A stretch of 64,000 nt of DNA from assembly GCA_030432695.1 (NCBI GenBank), contig JAUILN010000016.1:113178-177177 (forward strand), written 5' to 3'. Numbering within the stretch: the stretch's first letter is position 1; each line of letters begins with the position of its first letter. The position numbers were made by a program, and so were the translations under genes. Shown here piece after piece: positions 3 to 52,271 of the stretch. The notes beneath the pieces are model-generated. The model saw only the letters and a program-made list of their open reading frames with translations, searched no databases and was not told where the DNA came from. This stretch comes from a bacterium (GTDB taxonomy: Bacteria > Planctomycetota > UBA1135 > UBA2386).

Positions 3-1415
3 GCGCTCGCCTGGGTCGCGTGGCCGCGCGCGGAGGACTCACAGCGGAGCCCAGTGGTTCCCGCCAGCGGTCCGGACGCTCGATTCGCTGCCGGAACATC
101 CGATCCGAAACACGACGTCGGCCTGCGCACCGCGACCGGCGAACCCGCGATCCCCGAGCGCGGCGTGGTGGTCGCCGAACTCGCCACGGACTTCGTCCGC
201 GAGGGTCGCCTGGTCGGGGTAGTACCGGCGGCCCCGATCGATGCGCCGCTGGAGATCCGTTTCGACGGCCGGGTGGACGGAGTGCGCCGCGAGCACGAGG
301 CGAGGATCCCGGTGCAGCCCGACGGGCGGTTCCGGTTGGTGCTGCCGCCGTGGGCGAACGACTGCGAGCGCTTCGACCTACGGATCGACTTCCATGGACT
401 GTGGTATTCCGACCTGACGAAGCGCTTCGAGGGGGAGCTGCAGCGCGACGCCTCGGAGTTGCTGCTGGAGGTGCAGCCGATCGGGATCGTCACGGGGCGG
501 GTGGTGGACGGTGACGGCGAGCCGGTGGTGGCGGCGCGGATCGTGGCCATGGATCCCCGTGAGGCGGAGGATCCTGGCGAGATGACGACGCTATTCGGAC
601 AGACCAACAGCGGATCGGAAGGCGCCTTCCTCCTCAAGGTGCGATGCGAAGGCCCGACCATCCTCCTGGCGCTCCCGATGCAGGAAGCGTCGCTCAGTGG
701 CCTCCGCCTCCAGATGATGCGACCGGTGAACGAACAGGAGCTCGTCGCCGACGCGCCGGTGACGGACTGCAATGCGCATCGGGACGACCTGCTGCCGGCG
801 TATCGCGAGGCCGAGATCGTGTTCGGCAGGCAGACCGATTTGGCCCCGATCGCGCTCGACGTGCCGAGCCCGATCACCGGCCGCGTGGTCGATCCGAAGG
901 GTGACGGGATCCCCGGCCTCGGCGTCTGGTGGCTTCCCCAGGACGCACGGCGCTATGCCTACGTCGCCGGCCGCAACCTCGCTCTCTGGGACGACGACCG
1001 CGCGGGGTGGGCCTGGAGGGGGCTGTGCGGAGACGACGGGCGCTTCGGACTATGGGCCAATCCCGGCCGGCCGGGAGTCTGCCGGCCCTCGAAGATCGAC
1101 GGCGGCAACCTCCCCTGGCTCACTCCGGTCCCGGCCATCGCCCCGACCCATGTCGAGCTGCGACTCGAGCGAAGGGTGACCATCCGCCTGCTGCGCGACG
1201 GCGCACCCGTCGCGGACGTCCGACTCAAGCCTCACCGAACGGGAGGATTCGAGCCGATCCCGCTCGTCACGGACGAGTCCGGAGAACTGCAGCTGTGGCT
1301 CCCGACGGAGGGCGAAGCCCGGCTCCTTCTGTCCCGCGGCCCCGGCGACAAGCTCTGGATCGACGCCCGCGAAGCCGACGACGACGGCCTCCTCGTCATC
1401 GACCTCGACGACTGA
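3..1415 (+). CDS. Membrane-anchored carboxypeptidase-regulatory-like (transthyretin-fold) repeat protein, 5' end outside the window
   Basis: Frame is open from nt 3 (ALAWVAWP, end of a TM segment). Repeated GRVVDxxGxP(V/I) motifs. Ends ADDDGLLVIDLDD*. Confidence 0.75.
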   Translation, partial: ALAWVAWPRAEDSQRSPVVPASGPDARFAAGTSDPKHDVGLRTATGEPAIPERGVVVAELATDFVREGRLVGVVPAAPIDAPLEIRFDGRVDGVRREHEARIPVQPDGRFRLVLPPWANDCERFDLRIDFHGLWYSDLTKRFEGELQRDASELLLEVQPIGIVTGRVVDGDGEPVVAARIVAMDPREAEDPGEMTTLFGQTNSGSEGAFLLKVRCEGPTILLALPMQEASLSGLRLQMMRPVNEQELVADAPVTDCNAHRDDLLPAYREAEIVFGRQTDLAPIALDVPSPITGRVVDPKGDGIPGLGVWWLPQDARRYAYVAGRNLALWDDDRAGWAWRGLCGDDGRFGLWANPGRPGVCRPSKIDGGNLPWLTPVPAIAPTHVELRLERRVTIRLLRDGAPVADVRLKPHRTGGFEPIPLVTDESGELQLWLPTEGEARLLLSRGPGDKLWIDAREADDDGLLVIDLDD

Positions 1416-1908
1416 CCGCCTACCCAACCCGCCGCGGAGCACTCCGCCCCGCCGCCTTGCTCGCCTCCAGCAACTCCTTCAACTCCGCGACCACCTCCGG
1501 CCGCTCCGACCACAGATTCGTCGTCTCCCCCGGATCGACCTCCAGATCGTAGAGCTGCCCCGGCGCATCCGGATCGGTCTCCGGCAACGCATAGGGCAGC
1601 AGCCGCCCCCGGTCATTGTGATTCCGGCTTGACGTCCTCGTCGAGTGGCGGACCCATCGGCTCCTACTGGCTCACGCGTCGGCCCGGGCCCTCCTGGTCT
1701 ACGACGCGTAGCTCGAGCAGCGCGGCGTCGCGATGGAGGACGTGCTGACGAAGATCGTGGTCGTGAGTCGTGGATCGTGGGGCCAGCTGCGCTTCGGCTC
1801 GCGCGACCGAGCGGTCGACGGATGGTTCGCGAAGAGGCTGACGTGGCTCGTGATACGCCAGTCTCGCTGGGGATGGCGCGCGAGGTCCTAGAAAGCGCGG
1901 CGCACGAC
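1370..1908. repeat. Copy A of a duplicated block: LLVIDLDD* gene end + convergent sulfatase 3' tail + ~290-bp decayed ORF module
   Basis: Near-identical to 29715-30253. The part to ~1623 also matches 44960-45220, the 3' end of the intact sulfatase. Confidence 0.9.
1420..1616 (-). pseudogene. Orphan 3' tail (~65 codons) of the sulfatase gene
   Basis: Minus strand reads DRGRLLPYALPETDPDAPGQLYDLEVDPGETTNLWSERPEVVAELKELLEASKAAGRSAPRR, nearly identical to the C-terminus of 45018-46571. Confidence 0.9.
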
Positions 1909-1984
1909 AGCCTGCAGCTTGGGACGCCCGACTATGCCGCAGTCTGCTTGATCGCGGTGGCGGAAGGTGCGACCGGCAGCGCCC

Positions 1985-2539
1985 TTTCTTGAGGAATGCC
2001 TCCACGTCTCCCGGAGACATCGCGCTCTATGCGAACGCAACCATCTCCTCAACGTCCGGGTTCATGAAGCGCCCGGTCATACCGCACAGCGCATCGAGGG
2101 GGGCAACCCCTCCGGCGCCCTCATCCGACTCGTAGTAGCGCCGCTCGACTTCGGCGATGCCGAACGACGTGAGCCACTGCTTCCGGCTGTTGCCCGATAC
2201 CGCATCAGTTGGCCGTCGACCTCGATGGTCGGGGCTACAACGTCGGCGACCTCTACGACCACCACGAGAGCCTCGAGTGCTGCGGCCGCACTCGAGGCCC
2301 GGAGGTCCGATGACTGCTTCCGAAACGACTCTGGCGCCAGGCCGTCTTCTGCCGCGGAATCGACCATCTCGTCGAGTCATTGACGGAAATTGACCATCAA
2401 CTCGTCAAAGCGTTCAATGCGGAGGGCTGTGGAGAGCGGTGAGTTGCCGCACGCAAGCGCTGTGTCTGTTGTCACTTACCTGGTATGAGCGACTCCGCAG
2501 CCCAATCCCACTCTTCTGCCAGAAGAGAGATATGCACCC
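1985..2539 (-). mobile_element. ISKra4-family (UPF0236-type) IS remnant: left end plus frameshifted transposase N-terminus
   Basis: Minus strand KQWLTSFGIAEVERRYY...GVAPLDALCG, with a frameshift and an internal TAG. Terminal GGGTGCATATC at 2539 resembles ends of this family. Confidence 0.55.
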
Positions 2540-2689
2540 GTCACGCTTTCGGGAATTCAAATTCAAGGACCACTCATCCCCCAGGTCAGGGGAACCAAGA
2601 GTTCGCCGTCCGTCGCAACGGGGCGCCCGAAACTGCGCTGATGAAATGGCAGGCGCCATGATCGTGCTGCCTGCCGGGAAGGACGCGAC

Positions 2690-3271
2690 GTGACGAATCC
2701 AACGGACCAATTCCGAATCACCCTGTGGCTCCTGGCCTGCTCGCTGTTCTCGACGGGCTGCGACGAGATCGAGGCAACGGTGATCTTCCGGGGCGACGGC
2801 TTCGTTGCCGCCGTGCCGGCGGACTGGGAGCGGGCGGAGCCCGGTCCGATGCCGGGTCTCGGGCCTCTGATGCAGTTCGACTGCACGGCGTACTTTCGCG
2901 AGCCGTTCCGGTCCCAGGACGACATCTACACGGAGAGCTTCGCGTTCGGGACGATTCGCGGGCTAATCGTAGAGCAAATGAATCCGACTGATTTCGGTGA
3001 CTATGTGCACGCGGCCGCCGAGAGTTCTCGGGCACTGCTGACTTCGATGGGGGATGTCTCGGTCGACGGCCCGACGTGGGAAGACGGGTTCGGCTGGCCG
3101 GTTGCCCGTATCGACGTGCGGACGTTCGACGCCGACCGGAGTCAGAGCATGCGGATGCTCTACATCCTGCGGGAGGGAAGCGTGCTGTTCGCCGCCTACC
3201 ACGCCCAGCCCGATGAAGCCGATCGTCACTTCCCGCGTTGCAATCGTGTACTCGCAGACCTTCTGGACTGA
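2690..3271 (+). CDS. Hypothetical lipoprotein
   Basis: 193-aa ORF with coding-like composition and hydrophobic stretch followed by lipobox-like STG-C. Confidence 0.65.
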   Translation: MTNPTDQFRITLWLLACSLFSTGCDEIEATVIFRGDGFVAAVPADWERAEPGPMPGLGPLMQFDCTAYFREPFRSQDDIYTESFAFGTIRGLIVEQMNPTDFGDYVHAAAESSRALLTSMGDVSVDGPTWEDGFGWPVARIDVRTFDADRSQSMRMLYILREGSVLFAAYHAQPDEADRHFPRCNRVLADLLD

Positions 3272-37363: not shown

Positions 37364-39547
37364 ATGCACTGCCTGTCCGCCGCCGCCTTGCTCTCCGCAA
37401 CCCTCTCCGCACAGGTGCCCGAGGCGCCCTCGCCCGCACCGCTCACCGATCGCCCCGAGGGTCGACTCTCCGCGGCATCGATCGACCTCAGCGCGCAGGT
37501 CACAGAGGCGGCGATCGGCCACTTCGACGGCGTCTGGTGGGGGTCGGGAGCGGACTACTCGGCGCGCTTCGCGGCCGACGGCCTGACCTTCAGTCCGAAC
37601 TTCGCCATGCCGCGCGGCGGCGCCGTGCGATTCGAGTTCGAGTCGGCGCGGCGCCTCGGGGGTGACGCCTGGACGGCGGATCCGGTCGAGCCGCGGGGCG
37701 ACGCCCTGGCCAGCATCGTCGACTACCCGCGGGGCGCCGTGCTCGAGCGTTACGAGCTGCGCGGCCACGACCTCGAGCAGAGCTTCGTGTTCGACCGCTT
37801 GCCGCCGGGCTGCGGCGACCTGGTTGTCACTCTGCACACCGAGACCACGCTGACCTGCTCGACCGAAGGCCGCGCCGACGCGGGGTTCGCGTACGACGCC
37901 CCGGGCTGCGGCTCGATCACCGTCGGCCGCGTCGTCGGCATCGACGCAAACGGTCGGCGCTCCGACGGCTGGATCCGGGTCGCGCCCGGGCAGCTCGAGC
38001 TCGGCCTGCCGCAGCGATTCGTCGACACGGCCGCGCTCCCACTGACGGTCGACCCAGTGATCGGCAGCACGTTCCTGGTCACGGCCGGGCAGAACCGCGC
38101 GCCCGACGTCGCGTACGACCTGACCAACGACATCTACCTGGTGGCCTGGGTGGCGACGGGTTCGCAGTCTTTCGCCAAGGCACGACGCGTCGGCTCGGAC
38201 GGGCAGCCGATCGGCGGCGTGCTGCTGCTCGGCCCCTGCAATGACTATTCACCCGTGCGGGTGGCGAACATCAACGACCGCGATTCGTTCGTTGCCGTGT
38301 ACAACGACAACGGCGTCCTGAAGGCGCGGCGCGTCCTGCCGAACGGCGTGACGAGCGTGACGCCGATCACGATCGCGAACGTCGCTTCCAACGCCGCGTT
38401 CGACGTCGGCGGCGACATCACGACCAGCGATAACGACGTAGTCGTCGTCTGGGCAGATACCAGCGGCCACATCCGCGCCGCGCAGATCGAGGACTCGCCG
38501 AGCCGAGGCTTCCACGTGTTCGGCGAGACGGTGATCTGCAGCGGCAACTGCAGCGGACCGGCCATCGCCGAGAGTGGCGGGAGCGCCGGCCGGTACCTGG
38601 TCGTGTGGAACCAGGCCCTCAGCAACAGCGACCGGGTGATCCGCGGCGTCGTGATGGACCGCAATCTGGCCGTGCTCGACTCACTGGTCCAGGTCACGCT
38701 CAGTGGCGGCGCGAGTGACTTCAATCCGGACGTCGATGGCGACGGCCTGCAATGGGTCGTCTCGTACCTCCGCCTTCTCAGCGGCGAGTACGACGTCATG
38801 TGCCGCTCGGTGCAGTTCCATCCAGCGAACCCCGCGGGCACCTTCATCGGCCCCGAGATGGTCATCGAGGCGGATCCGCGAGACCGAGAAGAGTCCCCGG
38901 CCGTCGCCTGGCTCGGCGGTTCCGCACTGGTCTCCTATGTCGACAACAACTCATCTCAGGGCGACGTCTACGGCAAGACCGTCGATCCGTTCGACTGCAC
39001 GATCTGCGAGACTCAGTTCACGCTGGAGGAGGGCCCCGAGAGAACCTACTACGTGAGTTGCGCGAGCACCCACAGCGGGGGCGCCGACGACGACCGTGCC
39101 CTGATCGTCTGGGAGAGCAAGGGCGCGAACAACGCCGGCGAGATCCGCGCGCGACGCTTCCTCGCGTCGGACGGCATCGCCACCGACCTCGGCGGCGGCT
39201 GCGGCAGCGGCGGCACGAACTACGCGACCTGCGCGCGGACCGGTCAGTCCGGGTTCCGATTCCAAGTGCGGGAGGGCCGCAGCGCGACCAGCCTGCTGTT
39301 CGTCGGACCCGAGCGCATCGACGCCGGCTGCGGTCCCTGCCGGCTGGTGCCCGACCCGGCGAGCAGCGCGGTGGTGCTGGTCTCGACCAGCGCGGCCGGT
39401 CGCGCGGAGGTCGCCGTGCCGATCCCCAACAGCACGCACGTGCGCGGCATCAAGCTCTACAGCCAGTGGCTCCTGCTCTCGTCCGCCGGAGCCTGCACGC
39501 GCCTGCCCGGCGACTTCTCCAACGCACTCGAGATCACCATCCAGTGA
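37364..39547 (+). CDS. Large secreted protein, paralogue 2 of 3
   Basis: Signal peptide ...TLSA-Q; same three-part architecture as 10580. Confidence 0.87.
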   Translation: MHCLSAAALLSATLSAQVPEAPSPAPLTDRPEGRLSAASIDLSAQVTEAAIGHFDGVWWGSGADYSARFAADGLTFSPNFAMPRGGAVRFEFESARRLGGDAWTADPVEPRGDALASIVDYPRGAVLERYELRGHDLEQSFVFDRLPPGCGDLVVTLHTETTLTCSTEGRADAGFAYDAPGCGSITVGRVVGIDANGRRSDGWIRVAPGQLELGLPQRFVDTAALPLTVDPVIGSTFLVTAGQNRAPDVAYDLTNDIYLVAWVATGSQSFAKARRVGSDGQPIGGVLLLGPCNDYSPVRVANINDRDSFVAVYNDNGVLKARRVLPNGVTSVTPITIANVASNAAFDVGGDITTSDNDVVVVWADTSGHIRAAQIEDSPSRGFHVFGETVICSGNCSGPAIAESGGSAGRYLVVWNQALSNSDRVIRGVVMDRNLAVLDSLVQVTLSGGASDFNPDVDGDGLQWVVSYLRLLSGEYDVMCRSVQFHPANPAGTFIGPEMVIEADPRDREESPAVAWLGGSALVSYVDNNSSQGDVYGKTVDPFDCTICETQFTLEEGPERTYYVSCASTHSGGADDDRALIVWESKGANNAGEIRARRFLASDGIATDLGGGCGSGGTNYATCARTGQSGFRFQVREGRSATSLLFVGPERIDAGCGPCRLVPDPASSAVVLVSTSAAGRAEVAVPIPNSTHVRGIKLYSQWLLLSSAGACTRLPGDFSNALEITIQ

Positions 39548-43001: not shown

Positions 43002-44920
43002 GCGCGTAGGAAAAACAAAGGGGGACTCTGGAGCCCAGCCCCGGCAAGCAGCCCCTCCCGATCACCCACCACCGCGTCGTTCGGCCCCGCCTGCCGGCTC
43101 CATCGCGAACTTCTGCCCGACCCTCAACACCCCGCACCCCGCGCCGACAGACCGGTAGCCCGCAGCGACCCCTCACCGGCCCCGCTCAGTGCGCTCTGAT
43201 CACTCCGCCCACAGGCCCGGAGCCTCCGGCGGCGGACGCGCCGCTGACAGCGGCGGCAGCTCGGCCGGCAGCCCCAGGTGCGACAGCACTCGCGTGATCG
43301 TCCGCGGATCGGTGATAAAGGTCAGCAGGCGACGGCGGGTCTCGCACGCGCCCGCCCGTGCATGCTCGGGCGGGTCCCCGCTGTGGACAGATCAAGACGT
43401 CCACCCCAAAGCTCCTCCGCATCAGCTCCGCCCACGTCCAGCGGCGTCGCAAGTGCGGCTTCGTCTCCCGCTTCTCGCCCACCGCCCGGCAGGACCGCCT
43501 TTGCCTCGACCGGAACGCCGGCCGCTCACCATCGTCCGCGGACGGCACCGGCACCACCCGCTCGCGGTGCGACGCCGCGGGCGCGAACGCTCCGTGATAC
43601 GTCACCAGATTGCGATGCGGCCACGGCACCAACGCTGCCAGCCGCTCGATCAGGACCAGCGGCTCGAAGACCACCAGCTTCGTGCCATCCTTCCACGGCC
43701 GCTTGAACCGATACACCACCTTCCCGTCACGCGTCCATGTCAGCCGCGACTCGTCCAGCGCGGGCCGCAGCACATACCGACACAGCCGCTCCAACGCGTC
43801 CTCCCGGCCTTCCGCCACACGCGTCGCGGCGTGCAGTGAGAACCCGCGGTAGCGCGCCTGCAGCGTAGGACGCCCGAACTTGCCGGAGTCTCGGCGATCT
43901 TCCTGGGCGAGACGCGCCGCCTCATCCCCCACCCGGCGCACCGCGCAGCCGGCGCACTCGCCGAAGGCTATCCCGCCCTGCACAGCCGCCTGCTGGCAGG
44001 CATCCAACGCCGTCGGCTCGTGGTCCAGCAGCGGTCCCTGGCCCCACTCCACTGTCAGGCCACGCTCACGCAGCAGCGCCAGGGTGCGGCGGAAGATCCG
44101 GGTCGCCGCCCGCGCCAGGTCCGCGTCGCTCGGCGGTGGCAGCGGATGGAACACGGCGCGGCGGGCGCCGGACGGCACCGTGAACACACCATCCACGAAC
44201 AGTGCGTGGAAGTGCGGGTTCAGCCGCAGCGCCGAGTCGAAGCGCTGCACCGACACCACTGCGGCTGGTCGCGCGTCCTCGATGCAGTGCCTGCGCGCCT
44301 GGCGGCGCCGCAGGGCAAAGCACGAGCGCACGAAGATCCGGCGCAGTTCGCAGAGGAGGTCCGGATCGCGGGCAACAGGGAAGCGCAACTCGAAGGGCAG
44401 GCTCAGGACGAACTGGCGCACGGGCACGTCCGGGAACACCCGGTCCACCAGCCAGGCGGCGGTGTCGGCCATGCGCCGGCCGCCGCAGGAGGGGCAGAAG
44501 CCGCGGCGCTTGCACGAGAGGGCGACCAGCTCGTCGCGCCTGCAGCCGGGGCAGTAGACCCTCGCGAACCCTGCCGCGAGCTGACCGCAACGCAGGTAGT
44601 CCTCGAGCTCCCGGCGCACGAAGCCGGGCACCTGCGGCGGAGAAGGATCGCCACAGTCATCCAGGCGCCCGAAGAAGGTGGCCAGGTGACGCTGGAGCAC
44701 CTGATACAGAACTCCCCCCTCCGGTCGCCGGCGCTTGCGATGGGGACTCCAGGACGTTGTCACGCCCTGCTGTGCCCCGCGGTGAGCTGGCGGTCACGGG
44801 CGGCGTCGCTTTCCCGATCGAATCACCAGGTCGCGGGGACAGTGCCGCGACGGTCCCTGCCGGCCCAACCGAGAACCCCTGGCCGGTCAGTGATCGACCG
44901 CGCGAGTGAGAAACCCCGGA
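43002..44920 (-). mobile_element. Near-complete ISCR/IS91-like rolling-circle element (copy 5)
   Basis: oriIS-like terminus at 43002, transposase, and an upstream boundary near 44920 where homology to repeat copy B starts. No terminal inverted repeats or target duplication. Confidence 0.88.
43200..44763 (-). pseudogene. ISCR-type HUH transposase (single catalytic Tyr), frameshifted near the C-terminus by a 34-nt insertion
   Basis: Zn-binding CG...CPGC...SCKRRGFCPSC, HUH NPHFH, LCRYVLRP. Removing 43347-43380 restores CPQCETRRRLL...GLWAE* as in copy 3. Confidence 0.9.
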
Positions 44921-45220
44921 CTCGAGCGCCGCGAGCGAGCGAGCGAGGTTGGGAATCGACGTGCGCACGGCCGACGAAGACGGCCTGCTCGTCATCGACC
45001 TCGACGACTGACCGCACTCACCCGTCCCGCCGCGGCGCGCTCCGCCCGCTCGCCTTGCTCGCCTCCAACAGCGCCTTCAGCTCCGCGACCACCTCCGGCC
45101 GCTCCGACCACAGGTTCGTCGTCTCCCCCGGATCGACCTCCAGGTCGTAGAGCTGCCCCGGCGCGTCCGGATCGGTCTCGGGCAACGCATAGGGCAACAG
45201 CCGCCCGCGGTCATAGCGAT
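44921..45220. repeat. Copy C (putative source) of the LLVIDLDD*/sulfatase-tail junction
   Basis: GACGTGCGCACGGCCGACGAAGACGGCCTGCTCGTCATCGACCTCGACGACTGA followed by the intact sulfatase 3' end. Confidence 0.88.
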
Positions 45221-46571
45221 TGCCCCCCGACCCCTGGTGGTCGAGCAGCTTCCACCGCCCGCGCCGGATCGACAAGTCGAGCGAGATCGTCTGCTGCAGC
45301 AGGTAGGGCCGCACCGGTGCGTCGCGCTGCGCACCGAGCCAGACCTCCGACATGTCGAACGAGTCCTCGGCCGCAGTGTCCGGCACCGCCTGGCCGGTGA
45401 GCGCCGCCAGCGTCGCGTAGACGTCGGTCAGGCTGGTGAGCTCGCCGCAGTCCCGCCCTGCCGGCACGTGCCCCGGCCAGCGCACCAGCATCGGCGTGCG
45501 GGGGCCGCCCTCCCAGGCGTCGCGCTTCATGCCGCGCCAGGGCCGCGCGCCGTCGTGGTCGTGGTCGCGGCGCATCGCGAGCACCGTCGGGACCTCGGGC
45601 CCGTTGTCGGAGCAGAAGATCACCAAGGTGTCGTCGGCCACGCCGAGTTCGTCGAGGGTGCCGAGCAGCTCGCCCACCACCCAGTCCATCTCGCGGAGGA
45701 AGTCGCCGTGCGGGCCGGCGTCGGTCGCACCCTGGAAGCCGCGTGCCGCGAGCGACGGCAGATGGACCGCCTGCATCGAGTGGAACAGGAAGAACGGCTG
45801 GTCGGGATGCTCGGCGACGTGCCGCTTCAGGAACGCCCGGCTGCGATCGAGAAACTCCAGGTCCACCGTCTCCAGGTCGTAGTCGGGAGCGATCAACCCC
45901 GGCCGGCAGTCGTTCGAGTAGGGATGCTGCGGGATCGGCACCCGGTCGCCGCGCCGCTCCTCCAGCGAGGGCGGCACCGGCACGCGGTTGTCGACGATCC
46001 AGGCGTAGAGCCAGTCGGTGGTCGGACAGCAGGCAGTGCCGAAGAACGAGTCGAAGCCGCGGTGCACCGGCGCGTCGGCGATCGGCTTGGAGAAGTCCAC
46101 CCGGCGGATGCCCTCGATACCCGAGTCGGCGACCCGCTCCCCGGCGGCGTCGCGGAAGCTCAGCCCGACGTGCCACTTGCCGACCATCGCGGTGCGGTAG
46201 CCGGCGCCACGCAGCAGGCTGCCGAGCGTCGGCCGCTCGGCCTCGATCAGGTTCGGGCCACCGATGCCGACGAACACGCTGCGGAAGCCGGTTCGGAACG
46301 CCATCCGCCCGGTGAGCAGCGAGTAGCGGGTCGGCGTGCAGACCGTGCTCGGCGAGTGCGCGTCGGTGAAACGCAGGCCCTGGGTGGCGAGCCGGTCGAG
46401 GTGCGGCGTCTCGACCTTCGCCTCGGCGTTGTAGCAGGAGAGATCGCCGTAGCCGAGGTCGTCGGCGAGGATCAGCAGCACGTGCGGGCGGGCGGTAGAC
46501 TGCGCAGCCAGCGCCCCGCCGACTGCCAGCGCAGCCGCCAAGATGGCAGCAGCAGGACGAGAGGATCGCAT
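45018..46571 (-). CDS. Secreted arylsulfatase (formylglycine-dependent)
   Basis: ILADDLGYGD, CTPTRYSLLTGR (CxPxR), GKWHVG, SDNG, WEGGPR; signal peptide. Confidence 0.95.
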   Translation of the reverse strand: MRSSRPAAAILAAALAVGGALAAQSTARPHVLLILADDLGYGDLSCYNAEAKVETPHLDRLATQGLRFTDAHSPSTVCTPTRYSLLTGRMAFRTGFRSVFVGIGGPNLIEAERPTLGSLLRGAGYRTAMVGKWHVGLSFRDAAGERVADSGIEGIRRVDFSKPIADAPVHRGFDSFFGTACCPTTDWLYAWIVDNRVPVPPSLEERRGDRVPIPQHPYSNDCRPGLIAPDYDLETVDLEFLDRSRAFLKRHVAEHPDQPFFLFHSMQAVHLPSLAARGFQGATDAGPHGDFLREMDWVVGELLGTLDELGVADDTLVIFCSDNGPEVPTVLAMRRDHDHDGARPWRGMKRDAWEGGPRTPMLVRWPGHVPAGRDCGELTSLTDVYATLAALTGQAVPDTAAEDSFDMSEVWLGAQRDAPVRPYLLQQTISLDLSIRRGRWKLLDHQGSGGNRYDRGRLLPYALPETDPDAPGQLYDLEVDPGETTNLWSERPEVVAELKALLEASKASGRSAPRRDG

Positions 46572-46655
46572 GCCGGCCAGTGTGCAGGATCCGCGCGGCG
46601 CGCGCAGCGCGTAGACTTCCAGCTTCGCATCTCCACACCGCATCGGAGTCCAAGC

Positions 46656-47936
46656 ATGCTCAGCACCACCTGCGCCGCGCTGCTCGCGCTGGCCGCCCCA
46701 CAGGATCCGGCTCCCGCGCCCGCACCGGACGCGCAGTTCGCCGCTCCCATCCGCCTCACTGCGAACGGCGCCCCGCTCGCCGACCGGATCATCTACCCCT
46801 CGCCGCGCCTCCTCGACATCGATCTCGACGGCACGCTCGAGCTGGTGGTCGGCGACCTGCCCGGCCGCGTCCACGTCGCCGAGCGGGATGGCGAGGGCGG
46901 CTTCGCCTGGACCGCGCTGAAGAACTTCGCGACCGAGGGTCGGCCGCTGAAGTTCCACAACTGGTGATGCATCGGCATGGGTTCACAGTTGGTGGACCAC
47001 GACGGTGACGGCCGGCTCGACTTCTTCACGGCCACCTACGACGGCTCGCCCCACATCGCCTATGGCGTGGAGGGAGGCTTCGCGGAGCCCCAGCACCTGC
47101 TCGACAAGAAGGGGCAGCGCATCCGGTTGGAGATGTACTGGGACACTCCCAACAGCCAGTGGGTCAACGTGGGCGGCGACAACCGCCACTGCATCTCCGC
47201 CGTGCTGTTCGACTGGGACGGCGACGGCGACCACGACCTGCTGATGGGCGACAAGAACCACGGCAACCTGTTCCTGCAACTCAACGAGGGCCAGCCGGGC
47301 AAGGACGCGTTCACCGGCGAGAGCGAGGAGGTGCTCGCCGGCGGCGCATCGTTCGCGCTCGAACGCGGGATGACCGCGCCGCGGCTGGTCGACTGGGACG
47401 GTGACGGTCTGGTCGATCTGGTGGCGGGCAGCTTCGGCCAACCCTACGAGGCCACGCCCCCTGGCGGCGTCTACCTGTACCGCAACGTCGGCGCAGCCGG
47501 CGCACCGCGCTTCGCCGCCGCGACCACGTTGATCGCGCCGACCGAGATCGCGGCTCCCGAGGCGGACCGCCCCAACGTCGGCCTGTACGCCGACCCGGTC
47601 GACTACGACGGCGACGGCGACCTCGACCTGTTGGTCGGCGGTTACGCGATCGTCCCCGCGGTGCCGCGCGTGCTCACCGCCGAGGAACGGACCGAACTCC
47701 GCGAGCTGCAGGAGCGGCTCACCGTGGTCTCGCGCGAGATGTCGGCGGTGCTCACCAAGGCCCAGGAGGGCGAGTTCGACAGCGACGAAGCGCGCCGCGC
47801 CGCCCTGCAGGCAGCGGCCCAGGGTGAGGCCTACCAGACCAAGAGCAAGCAGAGCCTGGAGATCCGCAAGCGGATCCTCGAGCTCGAGCCGAAGCCCAAG
47901 CGAGAAGCCGGGATCTGGGTGTACCTCCAGGAGTGA
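46656..47936 (+). CDS. Secreted FG-GAP/VCBS-repeat protein, candidate selenoprotein (UGA at codon 104)
   Basis: GGAG RBS, signal peptide, DxDxDG repeats on both sides of a single in-frame TGA (46965-46967), SECIS-like hairpin downstream. Confidence 0.8.
46980..46998 (+). promoter_or_regulatory. Putative bacterial SECIS element
   Basis: Stem GGTTCAC/GTGGACC (one G-U pair), 5-nt loop AGTTG with G at position 2, 19 nt between the UGA and the loop. Confidence 0.65.
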
Positions 47937-48013: not shown

Positions 48014-49144
48014 ATGACCTCACCCACCCAGACCCACGACGCCGTCCGCGACTACTACGGCCGGGAACTCGCCGGCACCAAAGACCTGAAGACCGACGCC
48101 TGCTGCACGGTCGACTCGGTGCCCGCCCACCTGAGGCCCATCCTGGCGCGGATCCATCCCGAGGTCAGCGGCCGCTACTACGGCTGCGGGCTGGTGGCGC
48201 CCGAGCTGCTGGACGGCTGCGCGGTCCTCGACCTCGGCTGCGGCACCGGCCAGGACTGCTTCGTGCTGTCGGCGCTGGTCGGTGAACAGGGCTCGGTGAC
48301 CGGCGTCGACATGACGCCCGCGCAGCTCGAGTTCGCGCGCCGCTGGGTCGACCACCACCGCGAGGCGCACGGCCACGCGCGGAGCAACGTGCGCTTCCTC
48401 GACGGCTACATCGAGAAGCTCGACGAGCTCGACCTCGCCGACGGCTCGTTCGACGTGGTGGTCAGCAACTGCGTGATCAACCTGTCGCCCGACAAGCCCG
48501 CGGTGCTGCGCGAGGCCTTCCGCCTGCTGAAGCCCGGCGGCGAGCTGTACTTCTCCGACGTCTACGCCGACCGACGCGTGCCGTACGACCTCACCCAGGA
48601 CCGGGAGCTGTACGGCGAGTGCCTGAGCGGCGCGCTCTACTGGAACGACTTCCTGTCACTGGCTCGCGAAGCCGGCTTCGCCGAACCGCGGTTGGTGACC
48701 GACCGCGTGCTCGGCATCGACAACCCGCGGGTGAAGGCCCGGCTCGGCGCGCTGCAGTTCTTCTCGGCGACCTACCGGCTGTTCAAGCACCCCGAGATGG
48801 AGACCTCCGCCGAGGACTACGGCCAGGCGGTGGTCTACCGCGGCACGATCCCGCACGCCGAGCAGCGCTTCGCGCTGGATGCGAAGCACGTGTTCGAGGC
48901 CGGGCGGGCGAGCAAGGTCTCGGGCAACACCTGGCGGATCCTGCAGGACTCGCGCTTCGCACCGCACTTCGAGTTCGTCGGCAGCTTCGCGCGCCACTTC
49001 GGACCGTTCGGCGGCTGCGGGGCGAAGCCGCCGTTCGCGAGCTGGACCGCATCGCCGGCGACCCACCTGGGCGCCGAGGCCGGCGCGAACCAGGCCCCCG
49101 CCGCGGCTCCCGCCCCAGCGAAGGCCGGCGGCTGCTGCTCGTGA
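48014..49144 (+). CDS. arsM: Arsenite methyltransferase-like (ArsM/AS3MT) SAM methyltransferase
   Basis: DYYG..L....DLKTDACC, YYGCG, VLDLGCGTG.D, SNCVINL, GECLSGALYW, C-terminal GGCC. Confidence 0.8.
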   Translation: MTSPTQTHDAVRDYYGRELAGTKDLKTDACCTVDSVPAHLRPILARIHPEVSGRYYGCGLVAPELLDGCAVLDLGCGTGQDCFVLSALVGEQGSVTGVDMTPAQLEFARRWVDHHREAHGHARSNVRFLDGYIEKLDELDLADGSFDVVVSNCVINLSPDKPAVLREAFRLLKPGGELYFSDVYADRRVPYDLTQDRELYGECLSGALYWNDFLSLAREAGFAEPRLVTDRVLGIDNPRVKARLGALQFFSATYRLFKHPEMETSAEDYGQAVVYRGTIPHAEQRFALDAKHVFEAGRASKVSGNTWRILQDSRFAPHFEFVGSFARHFGPFGGCGAKPPFASWTASPATHLGAEAGANQAPAAAPAPAKAGGCCS

Positions 49145-49211
49145 CCGACGGGCGCGTGAGAAAATCGCGACCGCGCGTCGCACGCCGGACGCCTCACGCA
49201 TACCCCGGTCG

Positions 49212-52200
49212 ATGAACGCCTCCCGAGACCTCGATTCCCGCTTCTCCGAGTTCGTCGCCACCGGTGATTCCAAGCCGCTCGGCGACGTCTTCGACGCCAC
49301 TGCCGACGACCTCTACCGGCTGGCGCTGCACCTCTGTGGCGCGCCGGCCACCGCCGAGGACCTGGTCCAGGCGACCTGGCTGAAGGCGATCCAGGGCGCC
49401 GACACCTTCGCGCCCGGCAGCCCGGTGAAGCCCTGGCTCACCGGCATCCTGCACAACGAGGCGCGGATGCACTTCCGCCGCGAGAAGGTGCGGAGCCGGC
49501 CGTTGGAGCGCACCGAGCCGGCCGCCGACCCCAGCGTCGAAGCCGAACGCAGGGAACTCATCGAGGCCCTCGACGCGGGCATCGCCGACCTGCCCGAGCC
49601 CTACGGCCCGGTGGTCCGCCTCCACCTCCGTCACGGCCTGAACGCCAACGCCATCGGCGAGGCGCTCGGGCGGCCGGCGGGCACGGTGCGCACCCAGCTC
49701 GTCCGTGGCCTCGACCGACTGCGCGCGATCCTGCCGGCGAGCCTGGCGGGCGTCGCCGCGGCGCTGGCACTCCCGACCCGCGGGATGGCCGCGGTGCGGA
49801 CCTCGGTGCTCGATTCGGCGGCCGCTGCGAAGGCCGTGGGTGCCAGCAGCACCGGCCTGGCAGGCGCCACCACCCTGTGGCGCGCGCTCGCGGCGCTCGC
49901 CGCGCTGGTGGCGGTCACCACCGGCGTGCTGCTGTGGGAACCGTGGAACGGCGCGGCTCCGGCGCAGGCTCCGACCGACCCACGCGTCGCCGCGGTGCAC
50001 CTCGGCGACGCCGAAGCACCCTCCACGACCGACGCGACGCTTCCCGAAGTGCGCCGCGAAGTCCCCACCGAGGTCTCGGCGCCCGCACCGGCCGCCGATC
50101 CGAGCCAGGCGACACTGCGACTCTCGGGCCGCGTGGCGAGCGCGACCGGCACCCCGATCCCCGACGCCGAGGTCTTCGCGTTCCGTCACCGCGCCTCGGT
50201 CCTGCTCGACGGTTCCTTCGAGCACGAACCGCTGGCGAGCGCTCGCAGCGACGCGGACGGTCGCTTCACCCTCGACACCGACCGCGGCAGCTTCGAGCTG
50301 TTCGCGCGCGCCGCGGGCTGGGCCCAACTCACCGCGGTCCGCGGCACCGGCGACGCGGCGCTCGACGAGTACGACAGCGCCCGCATCGTGATGGCGCCGG
50401 CGATCACCATTCATGGCCAGGTCGTGGCACCCGACGGCCAGGCGATTCCCGCACAGCAGGTCGAGCTGTCGAGCAGCTACGGCACCAGCGCGAGCCTGCG
50501 CCAGGATCATCCGAGCGTGCTGCTCAGCGGCGCCGGCCGGTTCCAGGCGAAGACCGACGACACCGGCGCGTTCGAGTTCGTCGGACCAGAGGGAGCCCGG
50601 CTCTGGACCAGCGTCGAACACCCCGACTACCTCGGCTACGGCGAGAGTCATGAGCTGTCGTCGACGGAGCTGCTGCGGATCACCCTCGAGCGAGGCGACG
50701 AGATCCACGGCCGCGCCTTCCTCGCCAACGGCCGGCCCGCGGGTGGCGCCGAGGTCCGCCTGGACTCGGCGACCTACCGCAAGACCGTCGCCGACGCGCA
50801 GGGCCGCTTCTCGATCCGCGGAGTCGATCTCGGTGACGACCCGGAGCGCGGCTACCTGTCGGTGAAGCATCCCGAGGCGGCGGCGTTCTGCCTCAGCCCG
50901 ATCCCGGCGCGGCACCACGACCTGACCCTTCGCCTGCAGGCGCCGCGCACGCTCGCCGGACGGGTGGTCGACGAGGACGACCGACCGGTCGCAGGCGCGG
51001 TGCTGCGGGTCGTCGGCCAGCACCTGGTCACCCCCAACGCGATGCACATGGAGCCGACCACCTGGGAGTGGGCGCAGGGTATCGAGAAGACCGAGACCGA
51101 CGCCGAGGGCCGGTTCGCGTTCCAGCGCCTGAACGAGGGGCGCTACACGTTGCAGGCGGCACTCGAGAACCTGTCGGAGGGCGTGATCGAGACGCAGGTC
51201 GCCGCCGGGCAGACCGACGTCGTGGTCCGGATCACCGCCGCCGCGATCCGTAAGGCGGTGCTGACCGGCACCATCACCAGCGCCGCCGACGGGACGCCGC
51301 TCGCCGACGCCGACGTCGCGGTCTATCCGGCCGGCGGCGGGATGCGGCGCGAGGTCCGGACCGACGCCGAAGGCCGCTTCGAGCTGAGCGGCTTCGAGCC
51401 GGGCGACTACTCGGTCAACACTACGGCAGAAGGCTTCGCGAAGCGCAGTCAGGTCGCCTCCCTGGCGCTCGGTGACAACCCGCTGGAGATCGCGCTGGTC
51501 CGCGCGGTCGACGTCACGGTCCGGGTGCTGCGCGCCGACGGCAAGCCGTGGCCGAGCGGTCATGCCGGCCTGGACGACGCCCGGGGACGCAGCGTGTTCT
51601 TCCAGGTCGGCGCGATGGGCATGAACCGCCTCGAACTCGAGGAGGGCGGCACCGTGCGCTTCGACGACGCACCCGCCGAGCTGGTCACGCTGCGCGTCGC
51701 GCCGACCAACGACGACGAGTTCCGCCTGCCGCTCGACCTGACGCACGTGCAGGACGGCGAGGTCATCGCGGTGCGCGGCGGCGCGGTCGTCCCCGCGGTG
51801 CGCGTGTCGATCGGCGTCGGCGTCGCGACCGGCGAGGTGGGCGAGCTGGATCCCACGACCATCGAAGGCAAGCGGCGCATGCTGCAACAGCTCCAGGAGG
51901 GCCTCCTCACCTCGCCCGCGACGGAGATCACCGTCACGCTGCTCGACCTCCAGGGCCGCGAGCTGAGCCGCGGCACCGCCACCCCGGTGGACTGGAACGA
52001 CGTCGCCGACCCCGAGCAGTGGCAGCGCGAACGCGCGATGGGCTTCCGACCGTTCCGCTCCGAGAGCCGTTGGCGCGGTGGCTCGATGTCCGCGAGCGCG
52101 ATGCCGACCCCCCTGCCGGGCTTCGACCTGCGCGGGCGCGCCGAGCCGATGCTTCTGCGGGTCGAGGCGGAGGGCTTCGAGACGGTGGAGCAGCGGATCG

Positions 52201-52271
52201 ACGGCACGACGCTGGCGCCGTTCGACGAGCCGTCGCGGATCCGGCCGCGGTTCGTGCTGCTGCGAGAGTGA
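49212..52271 (+). CDS. ECF sigma factor fused to a TM helix and carboxypeptidase-regulatory-like repeats
   Basis: AEDLVQATWL, PWLTGIL.N, LGRPAGTVRTQLVRG; TM; repeated GRVVDxxG/TDAxGRF. Confidence 0.9.
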   Translation: MNASRDLDSRFSEFVATGDSKPLGDVFDATADDLYRLALHLCGAPATAEDLVQATWLKAIQGADTFAPGSPVKPWLTGILHNEARMHFRREKVRSRPLERTEPAADPSVEAERRELIEALDAGIADLPEPYGPVVRLHLRHGLNANAIGEALGRPAGTVRTQLVRGLDRLRAILPASLAGVAAALALPTRGMAAVRTSVLDSAAAAKAVGASSTGLAGATTLWRALAALAALVAVTTGVLLWEPWNGAAPAQAPTDPRVAAVHLGDAEAPSTTDATLPEVRREVPTEVSAPAPAADPSQATLRLSGRVASATGTPIPDAEVFAFRHRASVLLDGSFEHEPLASARSDADGRFTLDTDRGSFELFARAAGWAQLTAVRGTGDAALDEYDSARIVMAPAITIHGQVVAPDGQAIPAQQVELSSSYGTSASLRQDHPSVLLSGAGRFQAKTDDTGAFEFVGPEGARLWTSVEHPDYLGYGESHELSSTELLRITLERGDEIHGRAFLANGRPAGGAEVRLDSATYRKTVADAQGRFSIRGVDLGDDPERGYLSVKHPEAAAFCLSPIPARHHDLTLRLQAPRTLAGRVVDEDDRPVAGAVLRVVGQHLVTPNAMHMEPTTWEWAQGIEKTETDAEGRFAFQRLNEGRYTLQAALENLSEGVIETQVAAGQTDVVVRITAAAIRKAVLTGTITSAADGTPLADADVAVYPAGGGMRREVRTDAEGRFELSGFEPGDYSVNTTAEGFAKRSQVASLALGDNPLEIALVRAVDVTVRVLRADGKPWPSGHAGLDDARGRSVFFQVGAMGMNRLELEEGGTVRFDDAPAELVTLRVAPTNDDEFRLPLDLTHVQDGEVIAVRGGAVVPAVRVSIGVGVATGEVGELDPTTIEGKRRMLQQLQEGLLTSPATEITVTLLDLQGRELSRGTATPVDWNDVADPEQWQRERAMGFRPFRSESRWRGGSMSASAMPTPLPGFDLRGRAEPMLLRVEAEGFETVEQRIDGTTLAPFDEPSRIRPRFVLLRE

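Follow-up and report, generated by a model that had tools for sequence, protein, structure and literature searches.

A single reading frame on the forward strand of the window (the whole 64,000-nt stretch of planctomycete DNA that was analyzed) runs from an ATG at 46656 to a stop codon at 47934-47936. Translated with TGA as U, it comprises 426 codons, and its sole interruption is the TGA at codon 104 (46965-46967), which lies in the context NW-U-CIGM and is followed by a TGC codon for Cys105. The ORF list made with translation table 11 cuts this frame in two, one ORF ending at 46967 and the other occupying 46977-47936. The first-pass annotation had read the two ORFs as one frame parted by the TGA at 46965, and this is borne out; full-length homologues cover residues 1-426, in alignments that run through the TGA. 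The leader of the encoded protein, MLSTTCAALLALAAP, is short and was assessed by eye, and the structural model has a pLDDT of 49-55 at residues 1-20. Leaders are clearer in orthologues, e.g. MKLPLLSVLAFTATTVLAQ. The features of the locus are collected below.

Features of the candidate selenoprotein gene (positions within the window; A1 is the alignment of 31 sequences)
Feature	Position	Strand	Remarks
Whole gene of the proposed selenoprotein	46656-47936	+	426 codons + TGA stop, Sec at codon 104; Pfam FG-GAP_3
GGAG, likely ribosome-binding site	46645-46648	+	7 nt before the ATG; read from the sequence only
Putative Sec-type signal peptide, ~aa 1-14	46656-46697	+	Hydrophobic leader by eye, without a tool-predicted cleavage site
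UGA, very probably read as selenocysteine (U104)	46965-46967	+	TGA or Cys at the column in homologues
Cys105, vicinal partner of Sec	46968-46970	+	Invariant in A1
SECIS-like hairpin	46980-46998	+	7-bp stem, 46980-46986 with 46992-46998; loop AGUUG, 46987-46991
Five predicted FG-GAP blades, aa 28-335	46737-47660	+	AF2 model, structural matches
DxDxDG loop 1	46815-46832	+	Asp residues invariant in A1
DxDxDG loop 2	46995-47012	+	Asp residues invariant in A1
DxDxDG loop 3	47211-47231	+	Asp residues invariant in A1
DxDxDG loop 4	47391-47408	+	Asp residues invariant in A1
DxDxDG loop 5	47601-47621	+	Asp residues invariant in A1
Predicted helical insertion, aa 342-410, three helices	47679-47885	+	DSSP on the model
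Predicted last β-strand, aa 415-423, GIWVYLQE region	47898-47924	+	DSSP; W421 invariant

Pfam FG-GAP_3 (PF13517) matches the protein in four stretches (78.3 bits vs a cut-off of 26.9), and PF01839 does not reach its gathering score (19.8 vs 22.1). The AF2 model has a pLDDT of 90.6 and a pTM of 0.86, and both halves of the gene are needed to build it. In structural comparison it superposes best on five-bladed propellers (Z 18.6, rmsd 3.7-3.8 over 270-275 aligned residues), and the top Foldseek matches are integrin-type or FG-GAP chains (E 2e-7 to 1e-5) with TM-scores of only ~0.3. Modeling thus predicts a five-bladed FG-GAP β-propeller with five DxDxDG calcium-type loops. The FG-GAP propeller named at first pass is therefore upheld by both PF13517 and the model, but the best match is five-bladed and not of the seven-bladed integrin type. 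The last β-strand probably closes the propeller, with structural alignments reaching residue 426. In the predicted model, U104-C105 lie in the loop entering the first strand of blade 2, and in sequence they directly precede the 'xG' that Pfam aligns to FG-GAP repeat positions 1-2. Other FG-GAP/VCBS propellers (integrin alpha, CRTAC1 9etn, the Psathyrella lectin 2bwr and UmbA4 9oee) share PF13517 and the DxDxDG loops, but the protein in the window differs from them in its five repeats, its Sec, its helical insertion and its closing C-terminal strand. The best geometry is that of the five-bladed glycosidases of GH62, GH43 and GH32/68, where 270-275 of 317-319 target residues align; however, identity is 6-14%, there is no sequence-family match, and the shared fold does not by itself establish function.

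At the DNA level, TGA-TGY is kept at the Sec column in all 81 Sec-type homologues (31/31, 10/10, 20/20 and 20/20 in four sets), one of which (L023) is a paralogue in the same genome. Neither a sequencing error nor a decaying gene can explain a TGA that recurs in many families throughout the phylum. The homologue L070 from Novipirellula rosea has Cys-Cys (TGC-TGC) at the column, and the 13 full-length database homologues have C-C in ten cases, the others carrying H-C (P0147), W-S (P0205) or N-R. It had been anticipated that homologues would keep TGA or Cys here, and that Trp or Arg at the column, or a TGA unique to this genome, would speak against Sec; TGA and Cys indeed predominate, Arg never occurs and Trp is confined to P0205. 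Conservation in A1 runs on past the TGA, and the invariant columns comprise Asp, Gly and Pro residues together with U-C, I106, Q111, L195 and W421. U104 and C105 are the sole conserved redox-capable residues. The Cys-forms appear to be rare, a search of 301 sampled genomes of the phylum with the Cys-form P0249 having returned TGA forms only. The sole match spanning the Sec column without a stop in its genome sample (G102) was rejected, being an FG-GAP protein of a generic kind (709 aa) that lacks the motif.

Twelve nucleotides past the TGA, the stem strands GGTTCAC and GTGGACC enclose the loop AGTTG, exactly as the first-pass annotation described. For this sequence alone, the hairpin has an MFE of -9.7 kcal/mol and a z-score of -1.38 (19/200 shuffles fold equally well), and its 71-nt context has a z-score of -0.51. 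Among 59 distinct sequences, a 7-bp hairpin with the loop AGUUN has 93.2% of its cells paired. Compensatory changes occur at 3/7 pairs, with both sides altered in 24 cells: pair 25-43 (AU 24, GC 14, GU 6), pair 30-38 (AU 48, GC 7, GU 2) and pair 29-39 (CG 56, UA 3). Slid controls were paired in 28-43% of cells, and 0/500 shuffles reached the observed pairing and covariation, although this control overstates significance, as it allows neither for the codons in which the covarying columns lie nor for the relatedness of the sequences. The SECIS-like hairpin therefore stands above chance because it is conserved and covaries in homologues, and not from single-sequence folding, by which it is not significant. 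The hairpin agrees with the bSECIS model, as quoted in PMC13188914, in its 5-nt loop (G at position 2, then U), its 7-bp stem, its UGA-to-loop distance of 19 nt and its MFE. A search of 46900-47100 for Rfam SECIS families gave no match, only three chance hits (E 1.5-7.3). The codons of the hairpin had been called odd for this gene, whose GC3 is 0.916. This holds for TCA, which occurs nowhere else in the gene (1/14 Ser codons), but GGT (7/45 Gly codons) and TTG (4/46 Leu codons) are minor and not unique. The DNA of the Cys-form L070 is without the hairpin (-2.9 kcal/mol, whereas 61 Sec forms average -8.87; n=1), and it is the only such control because the search with P0249 gave no further Cys-forms.

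Profile searches of the same genome identified SelA (398.5 bits), SelB (308.3 bits, or 329.9 with a C-terminal piece) and SelD (337 bits), each over its curated cut-off. SelD itself has an in-frame TGA, and selA adjoins selD on contig C30. The Sec machinery that the first-pass annotation called for is thus present in these three proteins, but neither Rfam, ARAGORN nor blastn detected tRNA-Sec (selC) in the assembly, which is 88% complete. ARAGORN called 51 tRNAs and no SeC over the whole assembly, no tRNA-Sec emerged from an Rfam search of the surroundings of selA, selD and selB, and blastn-short with the tRNA-Sec genes of five relatives returned nothing. The best match to Rfam RF01852 (47.8 bits) was discarded, ARAGORN calling it a tRNA-Leu, as were the candidates from a loose anticodon/T-loop regular expression, which were only chance matches in coding-like DNA. 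A tRNA-Ile is likewise missing from this assembly. All five near-complete relatives have a tRNA-Sec (72.8-78.8 bits), and SelA is present in 148 of 201 sampled Planctomycetota genomes, including 42/42 of those with the TGA form.

The continuous frame, the TGA column, the conservation of the hairpin and the Sec machinery, together with a leader recognized by eye, support the earlier proposal of a 426-aa exported protein with a U-C pair, and it is very probable that 46656-47936 is one gene for such a selenoprotein, with Sec beside Cys. The UGA would be decoded as Sec, with the hairpin recruiting SelB and Sec-tRNA from within the coding sequence. Should the UGA instead be read as another amino acid (Trp, Cys or Gly via a near-cognate or suppressor tRNA, or by a local code change), the missing tRNA-Sec would be expected, although the assembly is only 88% complete; the W of P0205 would also fit, although it could reflect a gene caller reading TGA as Trp. 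This reading is highly improbable in view of the gene's own TGA stop, shared by 17/31 homologues, the Cys at the column in homologues, the covariation of the SECIS-type hairpin and the presence of SelA in every genome with the TGA form. Slightly less credible still is a true stop, by which the locus would yield two products, a secreted peptide of 103 aa and an FG-GAP protein of 319 aa in the cytoplasm, or else represent a pseudogene or a sequencing error. Public annotation accords with it, in that the best 120 database proteins of one search are all truncated, annotated as split pieces, and 62 of the best 150 representatives begin right after the TGA. However, the same TGA recurs in every Sec-type homologue, conservation crosses it, the Cys-forms are continuous, and the first propeller blade and the signal peptide are encoded upstream of it. 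Sequencing error, pseudogene, two separate genes and an alternative genetic code were accordingly rejected on the TGA recurrence, the covariation, the Cys-forms and the TGA stops.

DsbD_N (PF11412) is found above cut-off as a fused domain in 11/18 scanned homologues, comprising 6/8 long Sec-type fragments and 5 of the other 10 (eight Cys-forms with P0147 and P0205), all five being Cys-forms. Two Cys residues are kept in the DsbD_N of all 11 fused proteins, as Cx4C in nine and as Cx6C in P0224 and P0234. These fusions point to a redox-active vicinal Sec-Cys pair. The protein in the window is without a DsbD_N domain and no DsbD gene lies nearby; its genome encodes one DsbD, a 910-aa protein on contig C21 that combines nDsbD-like repeats with a TM domain and a CxxC. 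Complex prediction for the propeller and the fused DsbD_N of the Cys-forms P0233, P0224, P0234 and P0210 scored 0.07 against a mark of 0.32, and speaks neither way. No conserved neighboring genes were found in 13 wider orthologue loci (101 heterogeneous ORFs; the comparison leaves out L176-L178) or within the 1.5-kb flanks of 30 loci; a sulfatase neighbor occurs in 3/30 other loci. There is no thioredoxin-type Pfam match, and the motif is U-C without a spacer on a propeller, not the UxxC/CxxU of the thioredoxin fold.

We propose that the pair may serve as a redox centre outside the cytoplasm, with a selenenylsulfide as its oxidized state and a selenolate/thiol as its reduced state. With Sec and Cys adjacent in sequence, the selenenylsulfide could close as an eight-membered ring. 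The oxidized pair would then be re-reduced by a DsbD-type relay, for which homologues often bring their own DsbD_N with a Cys pair. We slightly favor the view that the pair forms a DsbD-linked redox centre, and the statement as a whole, that 46656-47936 encodes an exported propeller selenoprotein with such a redox pair, is reasonably probable. The fusions are also a concrete, testable route towards function.

Two other roles are compatible with a genuine selenoprotein. The Sec-Cys pair might bind a soft metal or metalloid such as Hg, Cu, As or Cd in a periplasmic metal-binding or metal-handling propeller. Of the motifs with Sec next to Cys (CU, GxUC) that Table 1 of PMC13188914 lists, most belong to metal or organometal proteins; moreover, the homologue P0147 has His-Cys at the site, His being a typical metal ligand, and an arsenite-methyltransferase-like SAM methyltransferase lies 77 nt downstream in the window. 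That neighbor recurs in 0/30 other loci and 0/13 wider loci, though, no further conserved Cys, His or Met is available to complete a metal site, and the recurrent fusion partner, DsbD_N, is a thiol:disulfide relay domain; a metal-binding role is thus unlikely. We give less credence again to a structural or regulatory pair, in which a strained selenenylsulfide shapes the ligand loop of a lectin- or adhesin-like propeller without turnover. Such a role would suit the closest sequence-type relatives, which bind rather than catalyze (CRTAC1, integrin alpha, the PVL lectin), and a paralogue expansion typical of binding-protein families, one genome having 23 genes with the TGA. Sec, however, is costly and almost always catalytic in known families, and the DsbD_N fusions speak for electron transfer, which makes a purely structural role improbable.

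Several known systems invite comparison. The periplasmic clients of DsbD, namely DsbC, DsbG and CcmG, have a thioredoxin fold with CxxC. The protein in the window would resemble them in being extracytoplasmic, with DsbD_N and its Cys pair fused to 11/18 homologues and one DsbD in its own genome, but it is a predicted propeller with a vicinal U-C, to which electrons would be passed by analogy. Mammalian thioredoxin reductase also has an adjacent redox pair, in its C-terminal Gly-Cys-Sec-Gly, and for both proteins the proposal is that another dithiol recharges the neighboring Sec and Cys. In contrast to that enzyme, the order in the window is U-C and not C-U, the pair sits in an internal propeller loop and not on a flexible C-terminal tail, and the protein is exported, without a flavin or NADPH domain. 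Adjacent Sec and Cys also occur in the CU and GxUC selenoproteins listed in Table 1 of PMC13188914 (MerB-like SaoL, HgcA, SaoC, KCU-star, MbdU and CopZ-like), but the folds and contexts are unrelated, theirs being metal or organometal proteins and the family described here FG-GAP propellers, often fused to DsbD_N in homologues. The bacterial selenoproteins of the FdhF type offer the closest parallel in decoding, with an in-frame UGA, a stem-loop 19 nt downstream within the ORF, Cys homologues and SelA/SelB/SelD; they differ in that the family and fold in the window are outside the 119 families of the same table.

The FG-GAP propeller family is very probably a real selenoprotein family and apparently has not been described so far. 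The 2026 catalogue in Table 1 of PMC13188914 comprises 119 prokaryotic selenoprotein families, and neither the table nor the main text has an FG-GAP, VCBS or propeller entry, which agrees with the first-pass view that FG-GAP proteins do not form an established selenoprotein family. The terms FG-GAP, VCBS, propeller and Planctomyc do not occur in the main text of PMC13188914, PMC12013277, PMC13326102, PMC2398784 or PMC9312934, nor in that of a 2022 bioRxiv selenoproteome preprint, and 'Integrin' is likewise absent from the main text of the five PMC articles. Literature linking a selenoprotein with FG-GAP, VCBS or Planctomycetota, or DsbD with FG-GAP, was searched for and nothing relevant was found. 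NCBIfam release 20 returned 0 families at E <= 0.1. Selenoproteins are uncommon, and almost all of those known from bacteria are either cytoplasmic or redox proteins with a thioredoxin fold. The present family is distinctive in placing Sec, in an unspaced U-C pair, on an exported calcium-loop β-propeller.

The TGA form was detected in 42/201 sampled Planctomycetota genomes, distributed among many families, and a single genome of 5.1 Mb has as many as 23 genes with the TGA. Since the public records found are all truncated, domain statistics, selenoproteome sizes and selenium demand in Planctomycetota are underestimated. Tentatively, and as a plausible rather than a probable generalization, Planctomycetota may hold an unrecognized, lineage-expanded group of exported five-bladed FG-GAP selenoenzymes, whose Sec-Cys selenenylsulfide is recharged via DsbD-type domains. 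If true, this would be an extracytoplasmic redox system of a new type, built on a scaffold other than the thioredoxin fold, and some Planctomycetota would be among the most selenoprotein-rich bacteria known, hidden by truncated annotation. The SECIS of the family constrains codons and even amino-acid pairs, making it a clean example for better selenoprotein gene finders; some changes in the hairpin swap two amino acids jointly (SPQFVD to SLQFAD), with the pairing preserved.

Under translation table 11 the frame at 46656-47936 is split into one ORF ending at 46967 and another spanning 46977-47936. Reading the intervening TGA as selenocysteine (Sec, U) gives a continuous product of 426 residues containing ...KFHNW-U-CIGMGSQLVDHDGDG..., in which U104 is followed by C105; the first-pass annotation's single frame, divided only by TGA, is thus borne out. 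We consider it very probable that this is a real Sec-encoding gene.

Coordinates of the Sec gene, its surroundings in the window, and related genes elsewhere in the same genome (G000; C-numbers are contigs)
Feature	Location	Strand	Detail
Start ATG	46656	+	7 bases 3' of GGAG
In-frame TGA, then TGC	46965-46967	+	from sequence
SECIS-like hairpin	46980-46998	+	stem GGTTCAC/GTGGACC, loop AGTTG; 12 nt 3' of TGA
Terminal stop TGA	47934-47936	+	from sequence
tRNA-Ala(GGC), ARAGORN	37902-37998	+	97 nt
IS91-family transposase	43186-44763	-	Y2_Tnp + Zn_Tnp_IS91
Sulfatase	45018-46571		divergent to Sec gene
Arsenite-methyltransferase-like SAM methyltransferase	48014-49144	+	Methyltransf_31, 130 bits; 77 nt 3' of Sec gene stop
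Long open frame	48879-52271	+	Sigma70_r2, three CarboxypepD_reg
Second family member (L023)	C15:691670-695482, ORF 1420-2685	-	422 aa
SelA	C30:146051-147127		398.5 bits
SelD	C30:147281-148210		337 bits; adjoins selA; own in-frame TGA
SelB	C5		308.3 bits; 329.9 with C-terminal piece
DsbD (L161), one in genome	C21:584000-587600, ORF 102-2834	-	910 aa, membrane domain, CxxC

To find the codon at residue 104 in homologues, tblastn was run with TGA translated as Cys. TGA followed by TGY occupies this column in all 81 Sec-type homologues, summed over four sets: 31 of 31 loci, 10 of 10 close matches in named public genomes (chiefly Planctomycetota MAGs), 20 of 20 paralogues of greater divergence drawn from 15 genomes, and 20 of 20 loci retrieved with a Cys-form query. 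The named-public-genome set comprised 80 loci, of which 32 had no alignment over the column, 37 gave weak, generic FG-GAP alignments in which the column holds another residue, and one, from Novipirellula rosea (L070), was a Cys form with TGC-TGC (NIYCCIGSQARFCDLDGDG). Across 60 relatives from its own family and order, each residue-104-spanning match (E <= 1e-10) carries one in-frame TGA; TGA also fills every column-spanning match among the matches listed for 301 sampled Planctomycetota genomes, and the four stop-free rows of that search begin at residue 141 or later. A second family copy in the same genome, on contig C15, reads VPIT-U-CICFCPQFVDYDADGD. Its closest Cys form, the database protein P0233, has a C-terminal DsbD_N domain; L023 stops before such a domain.

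Searching 1.84 billion representatives with a profile gave 2,074 proteins at E <= 1e-30. In 62 of the best 150 of these, residue 1-2 falls at profile position 109-118, which makes them ORFs called from the Met directly 3' of U-C-I-G. Full-length, single-stretch matches number 13 of the best 150, with C-C at the column in ten and H-C, W-S and N-R in one each (P0147 has His-Cys, P0205 Trp-Ser). The earlier expectation that homologues would keep TGA or Cys here therefore held for the 81 Sec forms, for N. rosea and for ten of these 13 proteins. Cys forms are rare among species-representative genomes.

Judged on the window sequence alone, the hairpin is ordinary: its MFE is -9.7 kcal/mol (z = -1.38), 19 of 200 shuffles fold equally well, and z is -0.51 with 71 nt of context. 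Its 5-nt loop (G second, U third), 7-bp stem, 19-nt distance from the UGA and MFE <= -7.5 fall within the bacterial SECIS limits given in PMC13188914 (Figure 2 legend). Covariation was assessed on a gap-free alignment of 61 homologues covering 66 nt about the TGA, counted on 59 distinct rows, with columns 25-31 scored against 37-43. Two cautions attach to this: the rows share ancestry, and the columns lie in coding sequence. Standard pairs occur in 93.2% of 413 cells, and three of the seven pairs show both-sided changes, in 24 cells, in line with the covarying hairpin that had been predicted. None of 500 shuffles matched the observed covariation score or cell count, and shifting the 3' arm 1-3 columns out of register left only 28-43% pairing. 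Pair 25-43 is AU in 24 rows, GC in 14 and GU in 6; pair 30-38 is AU in 48, GC in 7 and GU in 2; pair 29-39 is CG in 56 and UA in 3. Some changes replace two residues at once, as when AGT-CCA...GTG-GAC (SPQFVD) turns into AGT-CTG...GCA-GAC (SLQFAD), and the synonymous choice of CCA or CCG goes along with GTG or GCG. Folding energies average -8.87 kcal/mol over 61 Sec forms (range -12.8 to -4.9), and the equivalent 19 nt of the one Cys-form DNA folds at -2.9 kcal/mol. Residues 3' of the pair vary in Cys forms (SPVFAD, SPHFFD, TTSPAD), whereas CAG-TT is invariant in Sec forms, a sequence pattern consistent with an RNA constraint. The stem codons had been called odd for a GC3-rich gene (GC3 = 0.916): TCA is indeed found only in the stem, but GGT (7 of 45 Gly codons) and TTG (4 of 46 Leu codons), although minor, are also used outside it.

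Of the Sec machinery that the first-pass annotation sought in this genome, selA, selB and selD are present, and the in-frame TGA in selD implies that SelD is itself a selenoprotein. The gene for tRNA-Sec (selC) was not found in the assembly (88% complete, 37 contigs) by Rfam, ARAGORN or blastn with relatives' genes; it scores 72.8-78.8 bits in all five near-complete relatives. The sole Rfam tRNA-Sec match above cut-off in the genome is a tRNA-Leu. ARAGORN reports 51 tRNAs, with neither SeC nor Ile among them; the window's tRNA-Ala is ~20 nt over the usual length, and other over-long calls are Arg (92 and 102 nt) and Gly (94 and 96 nt). Family matches at E <= 1e-20 occur in 47 of 201 sampled Planctomycetota genomes, 42 of the 47 with a TGA-bearing row. 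SelA is present in 42 of 42 TGA-form genomes versus 148 of 201 across the whole sample, figures given without a probability because related genomes are not independent. The sampled genomes G102, G108 and G121, which are among those lacking SelA, show only stop-free partial or generic family matches.

Pfam assigns FG-GAP_3 to the protein at 78.3 bits; nothing in NCBIfam matches it. An AlphaFold2 model from a 31-row alignment (pLDDT 90.6, pTM 0.86) has strands across residues 28-335, three helices at 342-410 and a final strand at 415-423, and the five DxDxDG loops have invariant Asp residues. The top Foldseek chains are CRTAC1, UmbA4, integrin alpha and a fungal lectin (TM ~0.3), while VIA-align ranks the five-bladed propellers GH62 and GH43 first (Z 18.6, rmsd 3.7-3.8, 270-275 residues aligned at 6-14% identity). 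We read the model as a predicted five-bladed FG-GAP propeller closed by the C-terminal strand. U104-C105 is placed after the final strand of blade 1 and before the opening strand of blade 2, and in two Cys forms Pfam puts the G two residues past the pair at position 2 of the FG-GAP model. In propellers generally, loops between blades lie on the usual ligand-binding face, near the central channel.

Apart from the vicinal pair, no Cys-type residue is conserved. Among 18 homologues scanned, 11 have DsbD_N (PF11412) as a fusion partner: five of ten in one set (25.3-46.9 bits), all Cys forms, with one N-terminal and four C-terminal fusions, and six of eight long fragments beginning directly 3' of the TGA (28.8-38.5 bits). 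The fused regions retain two Cys, as Cx4C in nine and Cx6C in P0224 and P0234. From these fusions and by analogy, the best-supported reading, which we favor at slightly better than even, is that the U-C pair would form a redox centre supplied by a DsbD-type relay. Metal binding by the pair would accord with the H-C at the site in one homologue and with the catalogue's adjacent Sec/Cys motifs, mostly in metal or organometal proteins (PMC13188914, Table 1); it is a live but less probable alternative to the redox reading. The genome's own DsbD is distant from both family genes; its N-terminus has three tandem nDsbD-like modules, with a Cys pair in two and none in the third. P0126, a Sec-type fragment, has a squalene-hopene-cyclase-like C-terminal domain in place of DsbD_N.

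Neighboring genes give no help with function. The methyltransferase occurs at none of 30 other family loci and the sulfatase at three of 30, and no shared partner was found among 101 ORFs around 13 orthologues. The methyltransferase has a Cys-Cys pair near its N-terminus and GGCCS at its end; arsenite methyltransferase is a listed selenoprotein family, and this copy has no in-frame TGA. The transposase lies just past the sulfatase gene. The 3' end of the methyltransferase gene is overlapped by the long open frame, in which Sigma70_r2 comes near the start and the CarboxypepD_reg repeats later; more than one gene is probably merged here. At two of 13 other loci, too, CarboxypepD_reg proteins are found close to the family gene.

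Table 1 of a 2026 review lists 119 selenoprotein families and subfamilies, none of them entered as FG-GAP, VCBS or propeller and none showing a U-C motif on a domain of that type (PMC13188914), matching the first-pass remark that FG-GAP is not an established selenoprotein family. By word count, FG-GAP, VCBS, propeller and Planctomyc are absent from the main texts of PMC13188914, deep-Sep, BSepDB, the GOS paper, a 2022 review and a 2022 bioRxiv preprint, as is 'Integrin' from those of the first five. Literature searches returned nothing relevant on the family, which may still be named in supplementary lists. Of 1,459 database proteins at E <= 1e-10, the top 120 span 48-75% of the query with lengths of 235-354 aa and bear the names 'VCBS repeat-containing', 'FG-GAP repeat domain-containing' or 'hypothetical'; public annotation of these 120 does not read through the TGA. 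The family is large, and it is apparently undescribed and systematically mis-annotated in Planctomycetota. One relative (G032; 5.1 Mb, 96% complete) has, by row count, 23 distinct family genes with an in-frame TGA, which, if all were translated, would make a very large selenoproteome from one family.
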